Source: an uncultured Verrucomicrobiota bacterium (GTDB taxonomy: Bacteria > Verrucomicrobiota > Verrucomicrobiia > Limisphaerales > UBA8199). Taken from it: DNA of 64,000 nt. The translations under genes were made by a program, and so were the position numbers. The notes under the pieces were generated by a model. That model was not told the DNA's origin. It was given only the letters and a program-made list of their open reading frames with translations, and ran no database searches. The stretch lies in the NCBI GenBank assembly GCA_964653485.1, contig CAZZFF010000008.1, positions 6,557-70,556 of the forward strand, given 5' to 3'. Of this stretch, positions 1,173 through 47,391 are shown one piece after another. Within the stretch, counting starts at the first letter, position 1; each line of letters begins with the position of its first letter.

Positions 1173-2158
1173 AACCAAAACTCCTGGTCGTTGAATTGTG
1201 GGGCCTGGGGGACCTGATGATCGCGACGCCCTTTCTCCAGGCGGCCACCGACCACTACGCGGTGACGTTGCTCGCCAAACCCTATGCGCAGGACCTGCAA
1301 GCCCGCTTCTGGAGCCGGGTCAAGGTGGTCCCCTTCACCGCCCCCTGGACGGCCTTCACCCACAAGTACATGCTGTGGTCCTGGCCCTGGTGGGAAATAT
1401 TCCGCCTGCGAAGGACCCTCGCGGCGGAGCGGTTCGACTTCGGGGTCACCGCGCGCTGGGACCCCAGAAACCACCTCCTATTGCTCATCGTGCGCGCCAG
1501 GGCGCGGCTCGGCTTCCCGCGCATGGGCAGCCAACTGTTCTTGAACCGGCCCCTCGCCCGCCCGGAGCCTGGGGCGCATCAGTATGAGAAATGGCGCGTC
1601 CTGGCCCGCGCCCTGGGCTTCGAGTTGCCCCCTCGCGAAAAGCTCGCCCTGCGCCACAACCGGCCCGAGGGAGAAATCCTCATCCATACGGGCGCGGGCC
1701 AGCCGATCCGCGTCTGGCCCCTTGACCGCTACCGCGCCCTCGTGGCATGGCTTCGCCAGACCGGCCACCGCGTCCAGGTCGCCTGCGACCCCGACCAGCA
1801 CGATTGGTGGCTCGACGCGGGCGAAAAGTCCGTCGCCATGCCCCGTTCTGTCGCCGAGTTGCTCGCGCTCGTGGAACGGGCCGGGGCCTTCATCGGAAAC
1901 GACTCCGGCCCGGGCCACTTGGCCGCCTTCTGCGGCGTGCCCACCTTCACCGTTTTTGGCCCGCAACTGCCCGAGTGGTTCGCCCCCCTTCACCCTGCCT
2001 CCGACTGGCTCGAAGGCAAAGCCTGCCCCTACAAACCCTGCTCCGATTATTGCCGCTTTTCCTCGCCGTGTTGCATGCTCAATTCGGGCGACGAAGAGGT
2101 GCGCCATCGCGTCGCCGCCTTCTTGAGCCGCATCCACCAGGGAACCATACAGAAATAA
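1169..2158 (+). CDS. Glycosyltransferase family 9 (heptosyltransferase-like)
   Basis: In-frame ATG at 1169 within ORF 860..2158 gives MKPKLLVVELWGLGDLMIATPFL. The C-terminal GNDSGPGHLAA block is typical of GT9. The upstream extension is Pro/Ala-rich and overlaps the GT2 gene. Confidence 0.8.
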   Translation: MKPKLLVVELWGLGDLMIATPFLQAATDHYAVTLLAKPYAQDLQARFWSRVKVVPFTAPWTAFTHKYMLWSWPWWEIFRLRRTLAAERFDFGVTARWDPRNHLLLLIVRARARLGFPRMGSQLFLNRPLARPEPGAHQYEKWRVLARALGFELPPREKLALRHNRPEGEILIHTGAGQPIRVWPLDRYRALVAWLRQTGHRVQVACDPDQHDWWLDAGEKSVAMPRSVAELLALVERAGAFIGNDSGPGHLAAFCGVPTFTVFGPQLPEWFAPLHPASDWLEGKACPYKPCSDYCRFSSPCCMLNSGDEEVRHRVAAFLSRIHQGTIQK

Positions 2159-5776: not shown

Positions 5777-6601
5777 TCACAGCGGCAAGTCGCGGCGTTG
5801 CCAAACCACGCCGCCGATCACGGATGCGGCCAGGATGACCAGCACCAACACGCCCATGTTCTCCACGGGCCACCCCCGGGCCAGCTTGGGCCCGCTGGAG
5901 TAGTAGAACAAGGTCGCCGGCTTTAGGAAGCCGAGGCGGGGCCACCATTGGCTCACGATCCAGGCGAAATAGTCCAATACCAGCACGGCGACTGTGACCC
6001 CCACCGCCCGGCTGCGACCAGCGAGCACCCCGGCGGCCAACAGCGCGATGGCCCCCGCCGCCCCGGCCACCAAGCCGCCGTTCACGGCAATGCGGAAGAA
6101 GAGATCCAGCGGAACCGGCTGGCCGAAATCGTAGAGCCGGGTGGCCGCAACCGTCCCGAGGAACATCACCAGTACCAGGGCGAACATGCCCGCCATGGTC
6201 AACGTGCCGGCACAAACATAAACCTGCGTCTTTGTCGCGGGCCGGCTGAGGATCAACTCCATGGCCCCGCTCTGCACCTCCCCCGTAAGCAGCGTGGTGG
6301 GAGCGCCCACGGCAAAGAGCAAAAAGAGAAACAACACCAGGGGGTGTTGGTAGCCGATCAGAATCAGTCCAGGGACATTTCCCGCCTGCAGCATCTCGCC
6401 ACCCAGCGCCGTCTTGATGAACGGCGGCAGCACATCGAGGAACTTGAGAAAAGTCTGGACACTCGCATTGTCATGCACGATCGCGCACACCGCGATTTGC
6501 ACCAGGAAGACGACCAACCCGATGAACCCCCACATCGGCAGGAGGCGCCCGGCCCAAAAACCGAGCAGTGCGAAGGGGAAAGGAACGCGATGGGGCTTCA
6601 T
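5777..6601 (-). CDS. ABC-2 type transporter permease
   Basis: ATG at 6601 (MKPHRVPFPFALLGFWAG..) overlaps the stop of the upstream ATPase (ATGA at 6598-6601). Multiple hydrophobic segments. The ELILSRPATK block is typical of ABC-2 permeases. Confidence 0.8.
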   Translation of the reverse strand: MKPHRVPFPFALLGFWAGRLLPMWGFIGLVVFLVQIAVCAIVHDNASVQTFLKFLDVLPPFIKTALGGEMLQAGNVPGLILIGYQHPLVLFLFLLFAVGAPTTLLTGEVQSGAMELILSRPATKTQVYVCAGTLTMAGMFALVLVMFLGTVAATRLYDFGQPVPLDLFFRIAVNGGLVAGAAGAIALLAAGVLAGRSRAVGVTVAVLVLDYFAWIVSQWWPRLGFLKPATLFYYSSGPKLARGWPVENMGVLVLVILAASVIGGVVWQRRDLPL

Positions 6602-8795: not shown

Positions 8796-10780
8796 TGCGA
8801 CTCCGGTTTTCGGGTCAGAACCCAGATGTGGTTGCGAATGGCTTGCACCAGCAAGTCCGCGTCGGTCTGGTCCAGGCGGCGAAGGACTTTCTCCCACCTG
8901 TAGGCGAAGCTGCCGGCGGGGTCGTATTTGCAATGTTTGAACAGCGTGTCGAAGGCGCGACGGCGTTTGCGATAATCTTCCTGGATGTGAAGGAACCGCT
9001 CGCGAAATCCCGCGAGGTAGGCGGTCGCGAATCGGGCGCCGTTGGACAGCAGTTTGGCGCGGGTGTTCACGGGCCGGGCGTAATGTTCGGCAAAGGTGTC
9101 CAAGGGACGGGCGTATTCGCCGAAAGCGCCGCTGTGGTCGCTTACAAGCAGTTCCGCCGGCAGCCCATCCTCGCCTTCGCGGATGACCTCGTCGCCATCG
9201 TCGAACACGGGCCAGGTCCCCTCGTAGAGCGCGCGCCCCACAATGATGCTCGGCGCGGCGGCCCTGCCGAGGAGGCTGGCAAGCCTCAGGGCGTAGTCGG
9301 CCCGCACCAGTTTCTCCATGGGCACTTTGTCGCTGGCAATGCCTCCCAGGTAGTCGCGCTCGAAGTAGGTCGTACGAATGAGCTGGCCCCGATACCCTGC
9401 GGCGCGGCCCTTGTAAATCTCGCTCACGCGCCGCATGATGACGTGGGAGAGAAGGTTCATGCCCAACTGGCTGCAGCCCAGCCTTCGATCCAGCCAGTAA
9501 TCGATATAATCCTCGCTCTCCTCGATGGATTGAAGCAGTTCCTTGCCCTCGTCCAAATGCTCCCACACGCCCCACTTGAGCAGGCGCATGAACCGCTTGA
9601 CAGGCTGGTGCTCGCTCCGGGACCGCAGCTCGGCAAGGTACACCCCGCGCCGGCCCACTTTTTGCGGCCGTCCCTTCGAGAGTGATTCCGGGAGCCGGCC
9701 CAGATTGATGTACTCGATGTCTCCGTATTCCCGGATGAGGTTGAAGATGATGCCTTTGGCGCGCGGGTCCAGGAGCTTCTGGAGCGCCGGATCCTCGGGG
9801 TGGTTGGCGGCCTCGTCCAGAAGCGGGTCCAGGAGAAACTCACCCTCCTCGAAGCGGCCGCCAGGCAGCCAATCGACGTGCAGATAGAATTCGGGACTCA
9901 GCCCGCCCAGTATCTGGTCCGTTTGGGTCTCGCTGCCGTCCAGAAACAGGGTCCCTATCATCCGGTGGCACCACGCATCGTTGGTCGGATCATCGCGCCG
10001 GAAGGCCTCATGCACGGCGGAAACGAAATGTTGCTTGAGCCCCTCGTATTTCTCGCGCAATTCGCCGGCGGCGAGTTGGCGGAACGCGACCCCGGCAAAG
10101 AGGGCCGGGCCGCAATGCCGCAAATCGGCGGCGAAGAAGTCGAGTTCCGGACGGCCAAGATGGTTGCGGCGAATGGAGTAGTCGGCGATTTCCTGAAGCT
10201 GCCTGGCCAGCGCTGCGTCATCAAGTGTGCCCAGGTTCACAAATTCCTGGCACGTCAGCCAACGGGTGCCCGTGAGCCGGTTGTAGTAATAGACGGGAAG
10301 CTCCTGAATCGCCACCTTGGAACTGAAGATCAGCTTGGCTTTCTCCTCCTTGGTTGTCGGGATTGCACTGAGCCTCCAACACTCCCCCCGCCGCTTGATC
10401 GCCTCGCGCACACGCCGGTCCGAGACCGAAAGGAACACAATCCGCAGCTTGGAAACCAGCTCCTGCAACAACTCATCGCCCGCGAACGCCAAATCCATCC
10501 GCTCGGGATTCGGGCGGATGAGGATGTGGGCGTCCTCGAAGATCAGGTCCACGGAATTGCGGCAAATCCTCTCCTCCTCCTCCAGCGTAAGCGGGCCTTC
10601 CTTCCCTCCGGCGCGCCGGCTGTTGAGTGACTCTATGAAAGCCGACCGCTGCCAGGCATGGACGCCCGGCGGCAGCGTGTAAAGCGCCTTGTGGTCCAGG
10701 AAGAGAGTCCCAATCCGCGTCTTCTGCCGGCCCTGCTCGTCCCGCTCGAACGGATGGGGGCCAATGAGTTCCAAGTCCAT
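8792..10780 (-). CDS. Hypothetical 662-aa cytoplasmic protein, no domain recognised
   Basis: Long ORF with normal protein-like composition. GAGAGG lies about 6 nt upstream of the ATG at 10780, 21 nt after the stop of the upstream gene, and there is a 4-nt overlap with the downstream GTPase. No signal peptide, P-loop or other motif that I can name. Confidence 0.75.
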   Translation of the reverse strand: MDLELIGPHPFERDEQGRQKTRIGTLFLDHKALYTLPPGVHAWQRSAFIESLNSRRAGGKEGPLTLEEEERICRNSVDLIFEDAHILIRPNPERMDLAFAGDELLQELVSKLRIVFLSVSDRRVREAIKRRGECWRLSAIPTTKEEKAKLIFSSKVAIQELPVYYYNRLTGTRWLTCQEFVNLGTLDDAALARQLQEIADYSIRRNHLGRPELDFFAADLRHCGPALFAGVAFRQLAAGELREKYEGLKQHFVSAVHEAFRRDDPTNDAWCHRMIGTLFLDGSETQTDQILGGLSPEFYLHVDWLPGGRFEEGEFLLDPLLDEAANHPEDPALQKLLDPRAKGIIFNLIREYGDIEYINLGRLPESLSKGRPQKVGRRGVYLAELRSRSEHQPVKRFMRLLKWGVWEHLDEGKELLQSIEESEDYIDYWLDRRLGCSQLGMNLLSHVIMRRVSEIYKGRAAGYRGQLIRTTYFERDYLGGIASDKVPMEKLVRADYALRLASLLGRAAAPSIIVGRALYEGTWPVFDDGDEVIREGEDGLPAELLVSDHSGAFGEYARPLDTFAEHYARPVNTRAKLLSNGARFATAYLAGFRERFLHIQEDYRKRRRAFDTLFKHCKYDPAGSFAYRWEKVLRRLDQTDADLLVQAIRNHIWVLTRKPESQ

Positions 10781-34015: not shown

Positions 34016-34024
34016 GTGAATAAC
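34016..34024. promoter_or_regulatory. DnaA box (TGTGAATAA = TTATTCACA, fits TTATNCACA)
   Basis: Exact match to the 9-mer consensus TTATNCACA on the reverse strand. Confidence 0.5.
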
Positions 34025-34026
34025 TC

Positions 34027-34035
34027 GTGAATAAG
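34027..34035. promoter_or_regulatory. DnaA-box-like (CGTGAATAA)
   Basis: 8 of 9 match to TTATNCACA, 11 bp from the first box and in the same orientation. Confidence 0.4.
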
Positions 34036-34306
34036 AGTTAATATGTTGTCCTCGCAAGTTCGGTCTGGATTGCCTAAAAAGGTCGCCCGGATGGCGGTTC
34101 GGCTCGAGTGCATCAGGCTGCGAGTCATCGGCTCCTAAGCTGGCAGCTAGTTAGATCGTAAGTGATTGGTGATCAGCTACTTAGGTATTGCTTCAAATGT
34201 GTGAAATGCTAGAGCACCCGCGTTTTCTGGGGTTTTTGTCGTATGGGTCCGGTCCCGGTGGCCAGAGCAGGGCTGGATACAGTAGTGAAGCTGCGGTAAT
34301 CGGTCA

Positions 34307-34315
34307 GGTGAATAA
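34307..34315. promoter_or_regulatory. DnaA-box-like (GGTGAATAA)
   Basis: 8 of 9 match to TTATNCACA, 35 bp upstream of the dnaA start. This position would fit dnaA autoregulation. Confidence 0.4.
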
Positions 34316-37813: not shown

Positions 37814-39727
37814 TTACCGCTGGCTCGCGCGTTTGAGCCAAACCATTAGGATGCTGATGTCTGCCGGGGAAACGCCGGAGATGCGGGATGCCTGGCCGAG
37901 GGTGGCGGGGCGGATGTTGATGAACTTCTGGCGGGCCTCGTTGCGGAGGCTGGGGACTGACGTGTAGTCGAAGGCCGGCGGGATGTGTTTGTCCTCGATG
38001 TTTCTGAACTTGGCGACTTCGTTTTCCTGGCGTGAGATATAGCCGGCGTATTTGATGGCAATCTCGACCTGGCGGGCAACTTCCTCGGTCAGGTCGGGGG
38101 CGGGGTTGGGCAGGCGGCTGTAGTCCAACTCTGGGCGGCGGAGGAGTTGGGCCAGGGTTTCAGAGTTACAGCGTGTGGTCTCCAGGCGGAGGATTTCGGC
38201 GTCGATTCGTTCCTGCTTTTCGCGGACGAGGCGGGCCTTGTGGGCGGGAAGGAGGCCGATTGCGTGGCCGATAGCGGAGAGGCGCAAGTCGGCGTTATCC
38301 TGGCGCAGGAGCAGGCGATACTCGGCACGGGAGGTGAACATGCGGTAAGGCTCGATGGTGCCCTTGGTGACGAGGTCATCGATGAGGACGCCGATGTAGG
38401 CCTGGTCACGGCGGAGGGTTAGAGGCTCAAGGTCTTTGGCGCGTCGGGCGGCATTGATGCCGGCCATGAGTCCCTGGGCGGCGGCTTCTTCGTAGCCGGA
38501 GGTGCCGTTGATTTGGCCGGCGAGGAACAGGTTGCGGCAGGTTTTGGTCTCGAGGGAGGAATGGAGTTGGGTCGGGTAGGCGAAGTCGTATTCGACGGCG
38601 TAGGCGGGGCGGAGGATTTCGGCGTTCTCGCAGCCGATGATGGTTTTCACCATCGCGACTTGAATCTCGAAGGGGAGGGAGGTTGAGAAGCCGTTGACGT
38701 AGATTTCGTCGGTGGCGATGCCTTCCGGTTCGAGGAACAACTGTTGACGTTCCTTTTCGGGGAATTTGACGATTTTGTCTTCGATGGAGGGGCAATAGCG
38801 GGGGCCGATTCCTTGGATTATGCCGGAATAAAGCGGAGACTTGTCGAGGTTGCCGCGTATGATGCGGGCGGTGGCCTGGGTGGTGTAGGTGATGTAACAG
38901 GGGAGTTGGCCGTTGATGGCGGCGAGGATGGAGCCTGGGGGATAAACGGTAGAGGGGGTTGCGGAGTGTTCCACGTGGAACAAACCGGGTCGTGGTTTGG
39001 CGCATTGTTCCACGTGGAACAATTCGTCTTTCCAGTGGGTGAAGTATGGGACCGGCTCGTCTCCGGGCTGAATCTCGGTTTTGGAAAAGTCAATGGAGCG
39101 TCTGAGGAGGCGGGGTGGGGTGCCGGTCTTCAGGCGGCCCAACTCCAACCCGACCTCGATCAGGGAGGCCGATAGGCCGGTTGCGGCGGCCTCCCCGGCC
39201 CGCCCCCCGGACTGACGGTTCAGGCCGATGTGCATCAGGCCCTTTAGGAACGTGCCGGTCGTGACGATCACTGTCTTGCCCAGGTATTGAACTTCGAGCG
39301 CGGTCTCCACGCCATAGACAGTCCCGTCCCGGTGGAGCAGTTTGACGCATTGGGCCTGCCGGAGGTCGAGGTTGGGCTCGCGTTCACAGACCCACTTCAA
39401 CCTGAACTGGTATGCCTTCTTGTCGCATTGGGCCCGGGGAGCCCAGACGGCCGGCCCCTTACGGGTGTTCAGCATCCGAAACTGAAGCCCGGTCAGGTCC
39501 GTCGCGAAGCCCATTTCCCCGCCGAGGGCGTCTATTTCCCGCGCCAGATGGCCTTTGCCCAGCCCGCCGATGGCAGGATTGCAGGACATTTGGCCGATGG
39601 TATCCGCGTTGATGGTTAGCAGAAGGGTCTGGCAACCCATGCGCGCCGCCGCAAGCGCCGCTTCGATGCCGGCATGGCCCGCACCCAGGACGATGACATC
39701 ATACTTTTTCGGGAAGACGAACTCCAT
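37814..39727 (-). CDS. mnmG: tRNA uridine 5-carboxymethylaminomethyl modification enzyme MnmG (GidA)
   Basis: YDVIVLGAGHAGIEAA FAD motif, GPRYCPSIEDK, and GQINGTSGYEEAAAQG; 637 aa. It carries the parS pair in an apparently extended loop. Confidence 0.96.
   Translation of the reverse strand: MEFVFPKKYDVIVLGAGHAGIEAALAAARMGCQTLLLTINADTIGQMSCNPAIGGLGKGHLAREIDALGGEMGFATDLTGLQFRMLNTRKGPAVWAPRAQCDKKAYQFRLKWVCEREPNLDLRQAQCVKLLHRDGTVYGVETALEVQYLGKTVIVTTGTFLKGLMHIGLNRQSGGRAGEAAATGLSASLIEVGLELGRLKTGTPPRLLRRSIDFSKTEIQPGDEPVPYFTHWKDELFHVEQCAKPRPGLFHVEHSATPSTVYPPGSILAAINGQLPCYITYTTQATARIIRGNLDKSPLYSGIIQGIGPRYCPSIEDKIVKFPEKERQQLFLEPEGIATDEIYVNGFSTSLPFEIQVAMVKTIIGCENAEILRPAYAVEYDFAYPTQLHSSLETKTCRNLFLAGQINGTSGYEEAAAQGLMAGINAARRAKDLEPLTLRRDQAYIGVLIDDLVTKGTIEPYRMFTSRAEYRLLLRQDNADLRLSAIGHAIGLLPAHKARLVREKQERIDAEILRLETTRCNSETLAQLLRRPELDYSRLPNPAPDLTEEVARQVEIAIKYAGYISRQENEVAKFRNIEDKHIPPAFDYTSVPSLRNEARQKFINIRPATLGQASRISGVSPADISILMVWLKRASQR
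38967..38982. other. parS site (perfect palindrome TGTTCCACGTGGAACA), copy 1
   Basis: Exact 16-bp palindrome matching the GC-rich form of the ParB-binding consensus. It lies inside mnmG and encodes LFHVEH. Confidence 0.8.
39006..39021. other. parS site (perfect palindrome TGTTCCACGTGGAACA), copy 2
   Basis: Identical 16-mer 39 bp from copy 1. It lies inside mnmG and encodes LFHVEQ. Confidence 0.8.
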
Positions 39728-43039: not shown

Positions 43040-43289
43040 TGGGTGAGCACAGGCGCCGGGGTCTGGAGGGTGTCGGCCTTCATTGGAAGATCATAGGCCG
43101 GTACCAGCCCAGGTGTGAATGCAGCTTACGGTTTCAGCCGCAGCAAAGGCTTGAGGCTCCGGAAAAGGGGCAGGTTGTGATGGGTTCTTTTTATCGCCTT
43201 TATGCTTGCAAATCAGGTCCGATTCTCTAGAGTCGCGCTGTTCCCAGAACGGAGTCTGCGCTCAAGAGCTGCTTCGTTGGAGAATCTGG

Positions 43290-44051
43290 ATGGCAATGAC
43301 GAACGCACAGGACAGCGCAACGACTGCGGCGGGGCAGGCTGCGTGGTTCACCACCACGCACTGGAGCATCGTCCTCAACGCCCAGAATCCCGCGTCACCC
43401 CAGGCCAGCGAAGCCTTGGAGAAGCTGTGCTGCTCTTACTGGTATCCTCTCTACGCCTTTGTGCGGCGGCAGGGCAACGACGAGTATACGGCGAAAGACC
43501 TGACTCAAGCCTTCTTCGCCCGGCTGCTGGAAAAGAACCGCCTCTTTCAAGCCGACCGCCAGCGCGGCAAGTTTCGATCTTTTCTCCTGGGGGCGCTCAA
43601 GCACTTCCTGGCCGATGAATGGGACAAGACCCAGGCCTGGAAGCGTGGCGGCGGCCGGATCATTTTGTCCCTTGACGATCAAGCGGCGGAGGACCGCTAC
43701 CACCTGGAGCCGACGGACGAGATGACTCCGGACAGAGTGTTCGACCGGCGCTGGGCGATGACGACGCTGGACCAGGCCGCCAACCGGCTCCGCAAGGAAT
43801 ACCAGGATACGGGCAAAGGGGCCCTGTTTGACCAGTTGCAGGAGTTCCTGTCCGGCGCTCTGGAAGGTGTCGGCTACGCTGCCGCGGCCGCCCGGCTCGG
43901 CATGACCGAGAACACCCTTAAGTCCTACGTCCGCCGCCTGCGACTGCGCAACCGTGAAATTCTCCGGGAAGTGATAGCGGATACAGTGGCGTCGCCGAGC
44001 CAAATTGATGAGGAATTGCGCGACCTGTTCGCGGCTGTGGCGGCGGCATGA
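43290..44051 (+). CDS. ECF-type RNA polymerase sigma factor (PVC-type, extended)
   Basis: ATG at 43290. WFTTTHWSIVLNA.., CCSYWYPLYAFVRRQG..AKDLTQAFFARLLE (region 2) and C-terminal ARLGMTENTLKSYVRRLRLRNREIL (region 4 HTH). No anti-sigma gene follows; a kinase does. Confidence 0.85.
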   Translation: MAMTNAQDSATTAAGQAAWFTTTHWSIVLNAQNPASPQASEALEKLCCSYWYPLYAFVRRQGNDEYTAKDLTQAFFARLLEKNRLFQADRQRGKFRSFLLGALKHFLADEWDKTQAWKRGGGRIILSLDDQAAEDRYHLEPTDEMTPDRVFDRRWAMTTLDQAANRLRKEYQDTGKGALFDQLQEFLSGALEGVGYAAAAARLGMTENTLKSYVRRLRLRNREILREVIADTVASPSQIDEELRDLFAAVAAA

Positions 44052-44094
44052 TCTTCTTTGCAACTCTGCGCCGGCGTTTCCTCAGTAGGCTAGC

Positions 44095-47000
44095 ATGACG
44101 AACGAACGAAAATGTCCCGACTGTGGCGGTCCCATTCCAGCGGGGGTGCCCGCAGGCTTTTGCCCGCGCTGCGAGATGGCCGGGGCCATCGAGCTAACGA
44201 GGCCCAGCGAGGCTGGGCCCTTTCCGGGCCGGACGCTGCGGTATTTTGGCGACTACGAACTGCTCGAGGAAATCGCCCGGGGCGGCATGGGGGTGGTGTA
44301 TAGGGCCCGGCAGGTCAGCCTGAACCGGATCGTGGCCGTCAAAATGATCCTCGACGGACGGTTAGCGGCGGCCGCGGAGGTCGGGCGCTTTCGCGCCGAG
44401 GCGCGCACCGCCGCCAGCCTGCAACACCCCAACATCGTGCCGATTTACGAGGTTGGCGACCAGGACGGGCAGAACTATTTCTCCATGGAGTTCGTGGACG
44501 GAGCGAACCTGGCCCAAGTCGTGCGGGAGAATCCCCTCCCCGCCGCCCGCGCTGCCGGTTACGTGCGAATCATCGCCGAGGCCATTCAGTATGCGCACGA
44601 GCGCGGGGTGCTGCACCGCGATCTCAAACCCTCCAACGTGCTCATTGATCCCTTCGATCAGCCGCGCGTCACCGATTTCGGGCTGGCCAAGAGCCTCGGC
44701 CGAGACTCGGAGTTGACGCAGACCGGCCAGGTCCTGGGGGCGCCCAGCTTCGTCCCGCCCGAGCAAGCGGCCGGCCGGAAGGAAGACGTGGGGCCGCACA
44801 GCGACGTGTATGCGCTGGGCGCCATTCTCTACCATCTGCTGACCGGACGCCCGCCCTTCGCCGCGGAAACTCTGGCGGCCACCCTCGCCCAGGTGCTCAA
44901 CAAGGAGCCGGTCGCCCCGCGCTCGCTCAACGCCACCATCCCCCGCGACCTGGAGACCATCTGCCTGAAGTGCCTGGAGAAAGACCCGCACCGCCGTTAC
45001 CCCACAGCAACGGAACTGGCGGAGGAACTGGGGCGATTCCAGCGCGGCGAGCCGATCCAGGCCCGCCCGGCCGGGCAGGTGGAGAGGGTCTGGCGTTGGT
45101 GCCGCCGGAATCCCGCGCTGGCCGGTTCGTTGGCCACTGCGGTGCTGCTGCTGTTTGCGGGGGTCGTTGCGAGCACCTTGGAGACGCGGCGCGCCAGGAC
45201 GGCGGAGCGTGACCAAACGGTTCTGCGCCAGCGCGCGGAGGTGGCCCTGACTCAACTGGAGCTGCAGCACGCCGAGGCTTTGTTCGCGGCCGGTGATGCA
45301 CCTCGCGCCGTTGCCCATCTTGCCAGTGTGCTGGCCAGTGGCCGCTCGAATCGGGTGGCGGCTGAACGATTGTTGTCGGCATTAACCTCTCGCAGCTTAC
45401 CTCTGCCCTTGGTCGATCTAATCGGGCATGAAGATGGAATCAACTCTGCCAAGTTCAGCCCGGACGGGCTCCGCGTGATTACCGCATCGGAGGACAAGAC
45501 GGCGCGGGTGTGGGATGCAAGGACCGGCAAGCCGCTGATCGAGCCGCTCCGGCATGAGGGATCGGTCGCGTCGGCCGAGTTCAGCCCGGATGGGCTGCGC
45601 GTGGCTACCGCATCCGACGACGATACGGCGCGGGTGTGGGATGCACAGACCGGCAAGCCGCTCACCGAGCCGCTCCGGCATGAGGCCATGGTTTCTTCTG
45701 CCCGTTTCAGCCCGGATGGGCTCCGGGTGCTCACGGCTTGCGCGAAGACCGCGCAAATATGGGACGCCCAGACCGGCAAGTTGGTCACGGAGCCGCTCCA
45801 CCACGACGCGGACGTCGTCTGTGCGCAATTCAGTCCGGACGGGCTCCGGGTAGTTACGGCCTGCGGCTCGCTGGACCAGTGGTTTGACGGATATGCCCGG
45901 GTCTGGGATGCGCAGACCGGCAAACCGGTCACCGAACCGCTCCGGCACGGGGGACCTCTCCTCTCTGCCCAATTCAGTCCGGACGGGCTCCGGGTAGTTA
46001 CGGCCTGCGGCTTACCCGACCGAGGGTATGACGGATATGCCCGGGTGTGGGATGCACGGACCGGTAAGCCACTCACCGAACCGCTCCGGCACGAGGGACC
46101 GGTCGCGTCGGCCGAGTTCAGCCCGGATGGGCTGCGAGTGCTGACTGCTTCTCCGGATGGAACGGCGCGGCTGTGGGATGCCCAGACCGGCAAACCGCTC
46201 GCCGAGCCGCTCAAAGACGAGACGCCGCTTGCCTCGGCCCACTTCAGCCAGGATGGGCTCCGAGTGCTTACGAGCTGCCTCATCCTAGGGACGCTACGGG
46301 TGTGGGATGCACGGACCGGCAAACCGCTCACCGAACCGCTCTCGAATGCACGTTACGAGGAAGATCATCCATCAAACAGCATGGATTGTTTGAGCTACAG
46401 CTCAGCCCAGTTCAGCCCCGATGGCCTGCGGGTGGTCACGTTCTTCGACAGCGCGGCGAGGGTTTGGGACGTGGGGACAGGAGAGTCGCTCACCGAGACG
46501 GTTCGGCATGGAGAGGACATCAAGTCTTCTCAGTTGAGCCCGGATGGTCTGCGGGTGCTCACGGTTTCCAGCGAGACGGCGCGGGTGTGGGATGCCCAGA
46601 CCGGCAAACCGCTGACGGAACCGCTCCGTCATGCACAGGGGCCTGCATCTGCCCGTTTCAGCCCGGATGGGCTGCGGGTCATTACGGTTTCCATCGCCGG
46701 GACCCTGCGGGCGTGGGATGCCCAGACCGGCAATGCGCTCACCGAGCCGCCTCGGCCTGAAACCGAGGTTCCCTTAGCGCTCCAGCTTCTAAGGGATCCT
46801 CCGGATCTCCTCAGCCCGGGTCGGGCGCGCGTGCTGGCCAGTCCGGATGGGTTGCGGGTGCTGACCGTATCCTCCAACCTCACGCGGGTGTGGGAAATGA
46901 GTTTTGGCCCAACGCCTGTGCCCCCGTGGCTGCCGGAACTGGCGGTGAGCGCGGTGGGCAAGAGGCTCACCGGAGCTGCCGTCCCTCAGCGGGTCCCGGC

Positions 47001-47391
47001 AGCAGAATTCCTGAAGCTCAAGGCGCAATTGCGCCTGGCTTCCCCTGCGAACCACTACACTCGCTGGGCAGAGTGGTTCTGTGCCGACCGTGGCACTCGC
47101 ACCATTTCTCCTTTCTCCAATATTACGGTGCCGGAGTATGTCCAACACCGCATCCAGGAGGACAGTCTGGAAAGCCTGAGAGAAGCCGCGCTACTGTCGC
47201 CCACGAACGGCCTGGCCTTTGCTCGACTGGCGCGCGCGGTTGTTGCCCAAGAGCGTCATGACAACCCGCATTGGCTTGGGGAGGCTGATTTCTACAGCCG
47301 CCATGCTGCCAGACTGTCGCCGAACGACACCGAGGTCCAAGAAATCCGAGGCGAGGTCGAGCAAGCGGTGAAAGGGGCCACCAAGCCATGA
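44095..47391 (+). CDS. Ser/Thr protein kinase with N-terminal zinc ribbon, one TM and 11 WD40-like repeats
   Basis: CPDCGG..CPRC. Kinase subdomains GGMGVVY, VAVKMI, HRDLKPSNVL, DFGLA, APSFVPPEQ. TM LAGSLATAVLLLFAGVVAS. Eleven units of ..FSPDGLRV.T....TARVWDAQTGKPLTEPLRHE... Confidence 0.9.
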   Translation: MTNERKCPDCGGPIPAGVPAGFCPRCEMAGAIELTRPSEAGPFPGRTLRYFGDYELLEEIARGGMGVVYRARQVSLNRIVAVKMILDGRLAAAAEVGRFRAEARTAASLQHPNIVPIYEVGDQDGQNYFSMEFVDGANLAQVVRENPLPAARAAGYVRIIAEAIQYAHERGVLHRDLKPSNVLIDPFDQPRVTDFGLAKSLGRDSELTQTGQVLGAPSFVPPEQAAGRKEDVGPHSDVYALGAILYHLLTGRPPFAAETLAATLAQVLNKEPVAPRSLNATIPRDLETICLKCLEKDPHRRYPTATELAEELGRFQRGEPIQARPAGQVERVWRWCRRNPALAGSLATAVLLLFAGVVASTLETRRARTAERDQTVLRQRAEVALTQLELQHAEALFAAGDAPRAVAHLASVLASGRSNRVAAERLLSALTSRSLPLPLVDLIGHEDGINSAKFSPDGLRVITASEDKTARVWDARTGKPLIEPLRHEGSVASAEFSPDGLRVATASDDDTARVWDAQTGKPLTEPLRHEAMVSSARFSPDGLRVLTACAKTAQIWDAQTGKLVTEPLHHDADVVCAQFSPDGLRVVTACGSLDQWFDGYARVWDAQTGKPVTEPLRHGGPLLSAQFSPDGLRVVTACGLPDRGYDGYARVWDARTGKPLTEPLRHEGPVASAEFSPDGLRVLTASPDGTARLWDAQTGKPLAEPLKDETPLASAHFSQDGLRVLTSCLILGTLRVWDARTGKPLTEPLSNARYEEDHPSNSMDCLSYSSAQFSPDGLRVVTFFDSAARVWDVGTGESLTETVRHGEDIKSSQLSPDGLRVLTVSSETARVWDAQTGKPLTEPLRHAQGPASARFSPDGLRVITVSIAGTLRAWDAQTGNALTEPPRPETEVPLALQLLRDPPDLLSPGRARVLASPDGLRVLTVSSNLTRVWEMSFGPTPVPPWLPELAVSAVGKRLTGAAVPQRVPAAEFLKLKAQLRLASPANHYTRWAEWFCADRGTRTISPFSNITVPEYVQHRIQEDSLESLREAALLSPTNGLAFARLARAVVAQERHDNPHWLGEADFYSRHAARLSPNDTEVQEIRGEVEQAVKGATKP
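45415..46890 (+). repeat. Internal WD40 repeat array with high nucleotide-level identity (units about 126-144 nt)
   Basis: Blocks such as GCGCGGGTGTGGGATGC.CAGACCGGCAA.CCGCT.ACCGA.CCGCTCCGGCA recur at least 8 times. A 43-nt exact duplicate lies at 45826-45868 and 45970-46012 (period 144 nt). Confidence 0.9.

Follow-up and report, generated by a model that had tools for sequence, protein, structure and literature searches.

Predicted chromosomal parS sites within a lineage-specific loop insertion of mnmG, close to the likely origin of an uncultured Verrucomicrobiota bacterium

Organization of the locus

The DNA analysed here (the window, 64,000 nucleotides or 64 kb) covers positions 6,557 to 70,556 of contig CAZZFF010000008.1 in the assembly GCA_964653485.1 of an uncultured Verrucomicrobiota bacterium of the Limisphaerales, and our subject is a pair of identical 16-bp sites within its mnmG (gidA) gene that are probably chromosomal parS, the site at which the partition protein ParB loads. 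The open reading frame that carries them encodes a full-length MnmG, with the flavin adenine dinucleotide-binding GIDA domain and the C-terminal helical domains (Pfam GIDA, E=4e-156, plus GIDA_C_1st and SAM_GIDA_C), and it matches Escherichia coli MnmG (3CES) at E=2e-197. The genes around mnmG are dnaA, pdxA, pgi, ackA and a gene for a SurA-like peptidyl-prolyl isomerase. The features of the locus, and those of the loci from a second clade that is described below, are given in Table 1.

The sequence TGTTCCACGTGGAACA occurs exactly twice in the window, both times as a perfect palindrome of 16 bp, and the centre-to-centre distance of the two copies is 39 bp. The positions and spacing reported in an earlier reading of the letters alone (the sequence-only reading) were thus exact, and translation confirms its statement that both copies are read in the mnmG frame, the gene-upstream copy as LFHVEQ and the second copy as LFHVEH. 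In 100 dinucleotide-preserving shuffles of the window, the mean number of matches at up to two mismatches was 0.02, and none of the 100 contained two or more. No third copy, at up to three mismatches, was found in the window or in the contig beyond both of its ends, which was followed for about 16 kb in all, so that about 80 kb were covered; the contig (JGI Ga0455670_0000374, 204 kb) runs on for just 6.6 kb to the left of the window.

Both copies lie at an insertion in the protein. HMMER alignment of the window's MnmG to 3CES and 3CP2 breaks off at residue 239 and resumes at residue 274, a gap at about residues 240–273 is also seen against the Aquifex and Chlorobium MnmG structures, and the Pfam GIDA match is itself split at residue 241. 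The sequence-only reading had put the corresponding E. coli segment at some 25–30 residues shorter, and the alignment gives an insertion of 33 residues. Residues from about 241 to 261 of the insertion are hypervariable, and its final part, YPPGSILAAINGQ, is conserved inside the clade of the source genome. An AlphaFold model built on a shallow alignment of 60 close homologues has a mean predicted local distance difference test (pLDDT) score of 69.5, with residues 221–257 as coil at pLDDT<50 and with low values for several conserved segments also. The model thus lends weak support to disorder of the loop that bears the sites, which is probably a tolerant surface loop.

Table 1. Features of the mnmG locus in the window, and parS arrays at mnmG loci of the second clade
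Feature	Position	Strand	Description
Putative oriC/dnaA control region	34016..34315	+	Three GTGAATAA (TTATTCAC, DnaA-box-like) motifs
dnaA	34350..35723	+	Pfam Bac_DnaA, DnaA_N, Bac_DnaA_C
mnmG (gidA)	37814..39727	-	637 aa, intact; tRNA U34 carboxymethylaminomethyl modification enzyme
MnmG insertion relative to E. coli	38909..39010	-	Residues 240-273, 33-residue, directly before the PCYIT motif
parS copy 2	38967..38982		TGTTCCACGTGGAACA exact, read (L)FHVE(H); putative younger in-frame duplicate
Spacer between parS copies	38983..39005	-	23 bp, peptide CAKPRPG; holds the CAAACC/GGTTTG inverted repeat
parS copy 1	39006..39021		TGTTCCACGTGGAACA exact, read (L)FHVE(Q); gene-upstream, putatively ancestral
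Second clade, L081			Five exact copies in mnmG loop; dnaA-dnaN 1.2 kb away
Second clade, L082/L083			Three exact and one 1-mismatch copy, 409-residue insert; dnaA adjacent
Second clade, L084 (Logan SRR29277969 contig, GC 38%)	1882-2082		Three TGTGCCACGTGGCACA in mnmG loop; dnaA immediately downstream
Second clade, L085			One loop copy and, at the stop codon of mnmG, a variant

Identity of the 16-mer and position relative to the origin

The identification of the 16-mer as canonical, perfectly palindromic parS holds. TGTTCCACGTGGAACA is letter for letter (16/16) the parS2/parS3 site of Pseudomonas aeruginosa (PMC4368675), and it is also the parS of P. putida and one base off that of Myxococcus (PMC4368675, PMC7022226); both copies fit the parS consensus tGTTNCACGTGAAACa as a 16-bp palindrome. 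It can be read directly from the sequence that the CC/GG form of parS is free of stop codons in every frame, and the form TGTTTCACGTGAAACA has a TGA in one frame; the absence of stop codons in the CC/GG form would be what makes its housing in a coding loop possible.

Chromosomal parS sites, such as those of Bacillus subtilis (Spo0J/parS) and P. aeruginosa (parS1–4), are likewise origin-proximal and clustered and can fall in coding sequences, as do nine of the ten sites of strain PAO1 (PMC4368675). In contrast to them, the sites described here are fixed at the same codons of a single conserved gene in at least 80 species, and they lie in a lineage-specific, length-variable loop insertion with one to six copies, without parAB nearby.

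The origin context was as expected: dnaA, which had been placed about 3.3 kb away, starts and ends as given in Table 1 and is 3.2 kb from the sites. Three GTGAATAA (TTATTCAC) motifs, the sole occurrences in the 64 kb, all fall in a 300-bp stretch of the 430-bp intergenic region upstream of dnaA, about 4.7 kb from the doublet; no cluster of canonical TTATCCACA boxes was found in the window. Cumulative GC skew has its minimum at about 18–34 kb, and the doublet is situated just beyond this low plateau, where the skew turns positive. Because dnaA, the DnaA-box-like motifs and the skew minimum are all nearby, the doublet is likely to be some 3–5 kb from the origin.

Conservation in the clade of the source genome

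The source genome belongs to a clade of Limisphaerales/Pedosphaera-like metagenome-assembled genomes (MAGs) of the Verrucomicrobiota, here called clade A. Two samples of this clade were compared, namely 80 relatives (L001–L080) that are species-representative genomes of GTDB with MnmG 71–86% identical, and the 120 closest MnmG homologues, at 74–98% identity. A parS site is present at the matching mnmG offset in 80 of 80 relatives (up to two mismatches, mostly exact), and almost all of the 120 closest homologues have two [LMV]FHVE[HQ] peptides, the remainder of the insert being hypervariable in sequence and variable in length (29–125 aa among the relatives, 40–125 residues in the closest homologues). 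This peptide is precisely what NTG TTC CAC GTG GAA CAN encodes, and its variable residues, [LMV] and [HQ], map exactly to the codon bases outside the 16-mer.

Codon usage at the site is highly restricted. TTC for Phe and GAA for Glu are each found in 80/80 relatives, against backgrounds of 54% and 53%, respectively, in the rest of mnmG; all 63 Val codons at the site are GTG (background 32%), CAC encodes His in 75/80 (background 49%), and the preceding Leu is TTG in 74/80. Per-base identity over the relatives is 95–100% within the 16-mer, the central CpG excepted (77% at one base), whereas it is 47–73% at the third positions of conserved flanking codons and 31–56% in the loop directly downstream. 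The suggestion that the site constrains protein and DNA together is borne out by these figures, the same codons recurring in 80/80 relatives with their synonymous positions frozen.

Two alternatives bear on this pattern. If the sites were decaying, functionless relics of an ancestral gidA-gidB-parS-parAB cluster, one would expect parAB to be no longer adjacent, as is the case, and core variants with one mismatch would appear in some lineages, as they do. However, the site is conserved even though mnmG has diverged to 71–86% protein identity and the adjoining loop is saturated with change, the copy number has increased repeatedly, and substitution inside the 16-mer is the opposite of the neutral pattern seen at flanking synonymous sites; we therefore give the relic explanation scarcely any weight. 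Alternatively, FHVE[HQ] might be a functional peptide motif of MnmG, with an incidental likeness to parS. The segments WKDD and YPPGSIL next to the site are indeed conserved at the protein level in clade A, but at the site itself synonymous positions are frozen where neighbouring codons vary, 17 species tolerate Met in place of Val (CACATG), and the motif is missing in 95 of 109 diverse MnmGs. The mixing of three frames within single proteins of the second clade, described below, essentially refutes this explanation, and the chance left to it is as slight as that of the relics.

The sites are also rare and clustered rather than dispersed, both in the roughly 80 kb of the source contig and in the flanks of the relatives' loci. 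At up to one mismatch, the loci of the 80 relatives contain 94 matches inside mnmG and eight at distances of up to 2 kb from it; the 837 kb farther out contain none. This distribution is relevant to the third alternative, a selfish palindromic mini-element able to enter genes in frame. Both Rickettsia palindromic elements and DNA uptake sequences occur scattered through many genes, as selfish or uptake-related sequences; like the sites described here, they are DNA elements translated as passenger peptides in tolerant parts of proteins, but here a single gene is concerned, and the element is a predicted site for the host's own segregation machinery. A palindromic insert within a coding region, with varying copy number and loop length, would suit a selfish element. 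Against it stand the absence of copies from the 837 kb of flanks and of any other from the roughly 80 kb here, the orthologous position in 80 species, and the fact that only the 16-mer is conserved, its flanks and spacers being unrelated; such an element should be scattered among unrelated genes and carry its flanks along, and the copies found are only in or next to mnmG. An element of this type is thus very improbable, if a little less so than the two preceding alternatives.

Additional parS copies just outside mnmG form clusters that spill over its border in several relatives. Up to three are present within 600 bp downstream in L062 (3031-3556), and other relatives have parS about 60–800 bp upstream; besides L062, the loci with parS outside mnmG are L063:12104, L065:6439, L074:3454, L079:12061, L011:2450, L046:429 and L075:864.

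Nine of the GTDB records with a Verrucomicrobiota-type mnmG bear other titles (L003, L008, L016, L018, L023, L051, L060, L065 and L079, titled as Binatia, Acidoferrum, Methylomirabilota, Bifidobacteriaceae, Akkermansia muciniphila and Klebsiella pneumoniae MAGs), and contamination of the bins or wrong labels probably account for this.

Age, spacing and frequency of the doublet

A second parS copy is found in 16 of the 80 GTDB relatives; the 120 closest homologues include 99 non-redundant sequences, and 93 of these have it as well. On a neighbour-joining tree, the single upstream copy is ancestral and the doublet marks the subclade that holds the window; the doublet is missing from the window's two nearest species representatives, where the tree reads it as lost, and it arose anew at least once or twice elsewhere. 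By this comparison of sequences, the gene-upstream copy is ancient in clade A, and the second copy appears as a younger in-frame duplication.

The spacing of 39 bp is the modal one, in 57 of the 93 doublets of close homologues and in nine of the 16 of the GTDB loci, and the minimum is 36 bp. Relatives that share the 39-bp spacing have spacers unrelated in sequence, and this spacing is found in two separate subclades. A minimum of about 36–39 bp may allow two ParB dimers to occupy the sites independently.

The inverted repeat CAAACC..GGTTTG, to which the sequence-only reading drew attention, is present in the spacer of the window as described but has no counterpart in any doublet-bearing relative. 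Because it is missing from all of these we take it to be due to chance, and inverted repeats of 4–6 bp arise by chance in the spacers of other relatives.

Close doublets are not peculiar to this clade, and the idea that such close spacing would be unusual has to be given up. A scan of Joint Genome Institute (JGI) metagenome contigs for two exact copies spaced 33–63 bp, from which 80 loci among the matches listed were analysed, gave at least nine doublets inside mnmG, in the same loop (query residues ~239–263), at least 12 within 150 bp of the ends of mnmG, and at least five in the order mnmG-rsmG-[parS]-parA-parB. A parA or parB homologue shares the locus with the doublet in at least 35 of the 80, mostly within a few hundred base pairs. 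Close parS doublets are therefore common, in the metagenome matches listed mostly just upstream of parAB, and parS within genes is itself known, as in PAO1.

A wider comparison of MnmG and a second clade

In a wider sample of 109 MnmGs with recognisable anchors, representatives of clusters at 50% identity, 95 have neither the insert nor a parS translation, and 14 have an insert of at least ten residues at the loop position; parS translations are present in nine of these 14. The insertion is thus lineage-specific, as had been proposed.

A second MnmG clade, clade B, was sampled through the homologues of its member P0233; all 119 have one to six copies in the same loop. The one taxonomic label retrieved for its clusters, 'Bacteroidales' on an NCBI MAG, is probably unreliable. 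The peptides FHVE, CSTWN and VPRGT, which are mixed within single clade-B proteins, each correspond to one reading frame of the 16-mer, and the DNA of the loci L081–L085 (Table 1) bears this out. The use of three frames in single proteins implies that selection is on the DNA 16-mer and not on the peptide. At the level of sequence comparison, it is thus shown that selection acts on the 16-mer, with the protein translating whichever frame the site occupies; the 16-mer is conserved as DNA independently of coding, by frozen synonymous sites in clade A and by three frames in clade B. Taken over both clades, the arrangement is common to hundreds of related uncultured bacteria.

In L084 the three sites are a different perfect palindrome, TGTGCCACGTGGCACA, with CATWH as the translation of two of them and VPRGT of the third. 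Such a concerted change implies a reader protein that co-evolves with its sites, and it looks like a shift of parS and ParB specificity in concert.

In other MnmG lineages, peptides beginning MFHVEQ are found at the annotated N-termini of P0135, P0145, P0157, P0144 and P0121, probably because gene callers started at an ATG inside an upstream parS. In P0239, P0225, P0145 and P0169, the C-terminal domain has parS translations in its variable linker (residues ~460–540).

The partition genes and the gidAB-parAB cluster

ParA and ParB were searched for with a motif regular expression and by tblastn with Spo0J/Soj query sequences. The same queries detect ParA/ParB at 34–73% identity in the metagenome loci, and for this reason the absence of parAB near mnmG that is reported below is taken as real. 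We infer that the source genome encodes ParB; ParABS homologues are reported for Akkermansia muciniphila, of the same phylum (PMC10197239).

In P. aeruginosa, gidAB and parAB form an operon (PMC13438810). In the origin cluster of gidA (mnmG), gidB (rsmG), parA and parB, parS is next to parA, so that parS is physically linked to mnmG there as it is here; but in the window and the clade to which it belongs the sites fall within mnmG, with neither rsmG nor parAB in the vicinity. In general, parS is associated with mnmG as a consequence of the old gidAB-parAB origin cluster, and the peculiarity of the present case lies in the placement of the sites within the gene, with parAB located elsewhere.

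Interpretation

We consider that the two 16-mers are chromosomal parS, that is, predicted ParB loading sites, inside a loop of mnmG a few kilobases from dnaA and oriC, and we put the probability of this reading of the sequence at roughly 0.85. The core of the sequence-only reading, namely a canonical parS pair, in frame, in a lineage-specific MnmG loop near the origin, with the DNA constraining the protein, is supported by the comparisons given above.

Three observations weigh on the other side. First, no parA or parB was found in the window, its extensions or the 85 mnmG loci (L001–L085), about 1.47 Mb in all, apart from a single weak Soj-like match in L004. Second, dnaA is less than 10 kb from mnmG in just two of the 80 clade-A relatives (L001 and L013); adjacency of mnmG and dnaA throughout clade A was consequently rejected, since outside these two dnaA is not next to mnmG in the relatives. 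Third, the central core of the site is changed in some species, 17/80 relatives having a Met codon for Val (CACATG; FHME) and 5/80 having CAT for His (CATGTG), both of which are CpG-to-TpG changes, and core changes of parS lower the affinity of ParB in P. aeruginosa (PMC4368675). No exact parS copy was found within 10 kb of the core-variant mnmG sites in the loci examined. The relatives with core variants include L015, L021, L022, L028, L032, L035, L036, L038 and L043, among others, at about position 10701, and further L045, L049, L058, L060, L064, L066 and L069.

In a fourth alternative, the reader of the sites would be a ParB-family paralogue or another protein that recognizes CACGTG palindromes, with a local role (a roadblock or silencer of mnmG, or marking of the nucleoid-occlusion type) and not one in segregation. 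That parAB is not seen near the sites, that the sites are inside a transcribed gene, and that one lineage has a variant palindrome, so that the specificity of the reader can drift, would all agree with it. Nevertheless, the sequence exactly matches the chromosomal parS to which ParB binds with high affinity in model bacteria (PMC4368675), the same doublets adjoin parAB and mnmG-rsmG in other bacteria, and the site is origin-proximal in the source genome. We regard another reader as unlikely, although it is the least improbable of the four alternatives.

On the reading as chromosomal parS, and by analogy with established ParABS biology, a ParB dimer would bind each palindrome, close as a clamp dependent on cytidine triphosphate (CTP) and slide onto the flanking DNA; an origin-proximal partition complex would thereby build up, on which ParA and SMC would act. 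The loop would serve as a tolerant, expandable harbour for one to six parS copies, according to lineage, and additional copies would come about by in-frame duplication. A broader proposal, which we put forward tentatively and at somewhat less than even odds, is that large uncultured lineages of the Planctomycetes-Verrucomicrobia-Chlamydiae (PVC) type (Limisphaerales-like Verrucomicrobiota and clade B) keep their main or only centromere array in this expandable, frame-neutral loop of mnmG, where loss of the array would damage the gene and copies would be gained by in-frame duplication subject to a minimum spacing of about 36–39 bp.

While parS, parS within genes and parS near gidA are already known, we found no account, in the literature searched, of a conserved parS array within an MnmG insertion of variable length across large uncultured lineages, nor of the placement of parS in a large part of the uncultured Verrucomicrobiota and allied lineages. 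In this arrangement nature offers a very clean example of how a DNA-binding site can dictate protein sequence, with one 16-mer running through three frames, in one to six copies, in an otherwise freely evolving loop. It predicts where ParB would load in that large part of the uncultured Verrucomicrobiota and in the allied lineages, would make mnmG a one-gene centromere marker for metagenome bins, and, for annotation, accounts for the odd length variation of MnmG and for the FHVEH, CSTWN and VPRGT peptides. It also raises questions about ParB loading within a transcribed gene, minimum site spacing, and how ParB specificity co-evolves in the lineage with TGTGCCACGTGGCACA.

Other features

In the predicted fold of the mnmG transcript (38940-39050, minus strand), the two copies pair as a 17-bp hairpin (free energy change, dG, -33.4 kcal/mol; z -5.1). 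We do not count this hairpin as evidence of an RNA element, since any two identical palindromes would pair in this way. It might influence translation through the mnmG loop.

The insert regions of P0011, P0013 and P0014 contain tandem PHSALRT/PHSPLP-like peptide repeats, which suggests that the insert has also grown by slippage, independently of parS copies.

In the contig past the left window edge (L087:1130-1851), there are a PIN-domain/PhdYeFM toxin-antitoxin pair and several small unannotated open reading frames near the contig end. Within the window, positions 43206-47391 hold a gene for a sigma factor of the extracytoplasmic function (ECF) type, followed by that of a 1098-aa Ser/Thr kinase with a long WD40-like array of FSPDGLRV units.

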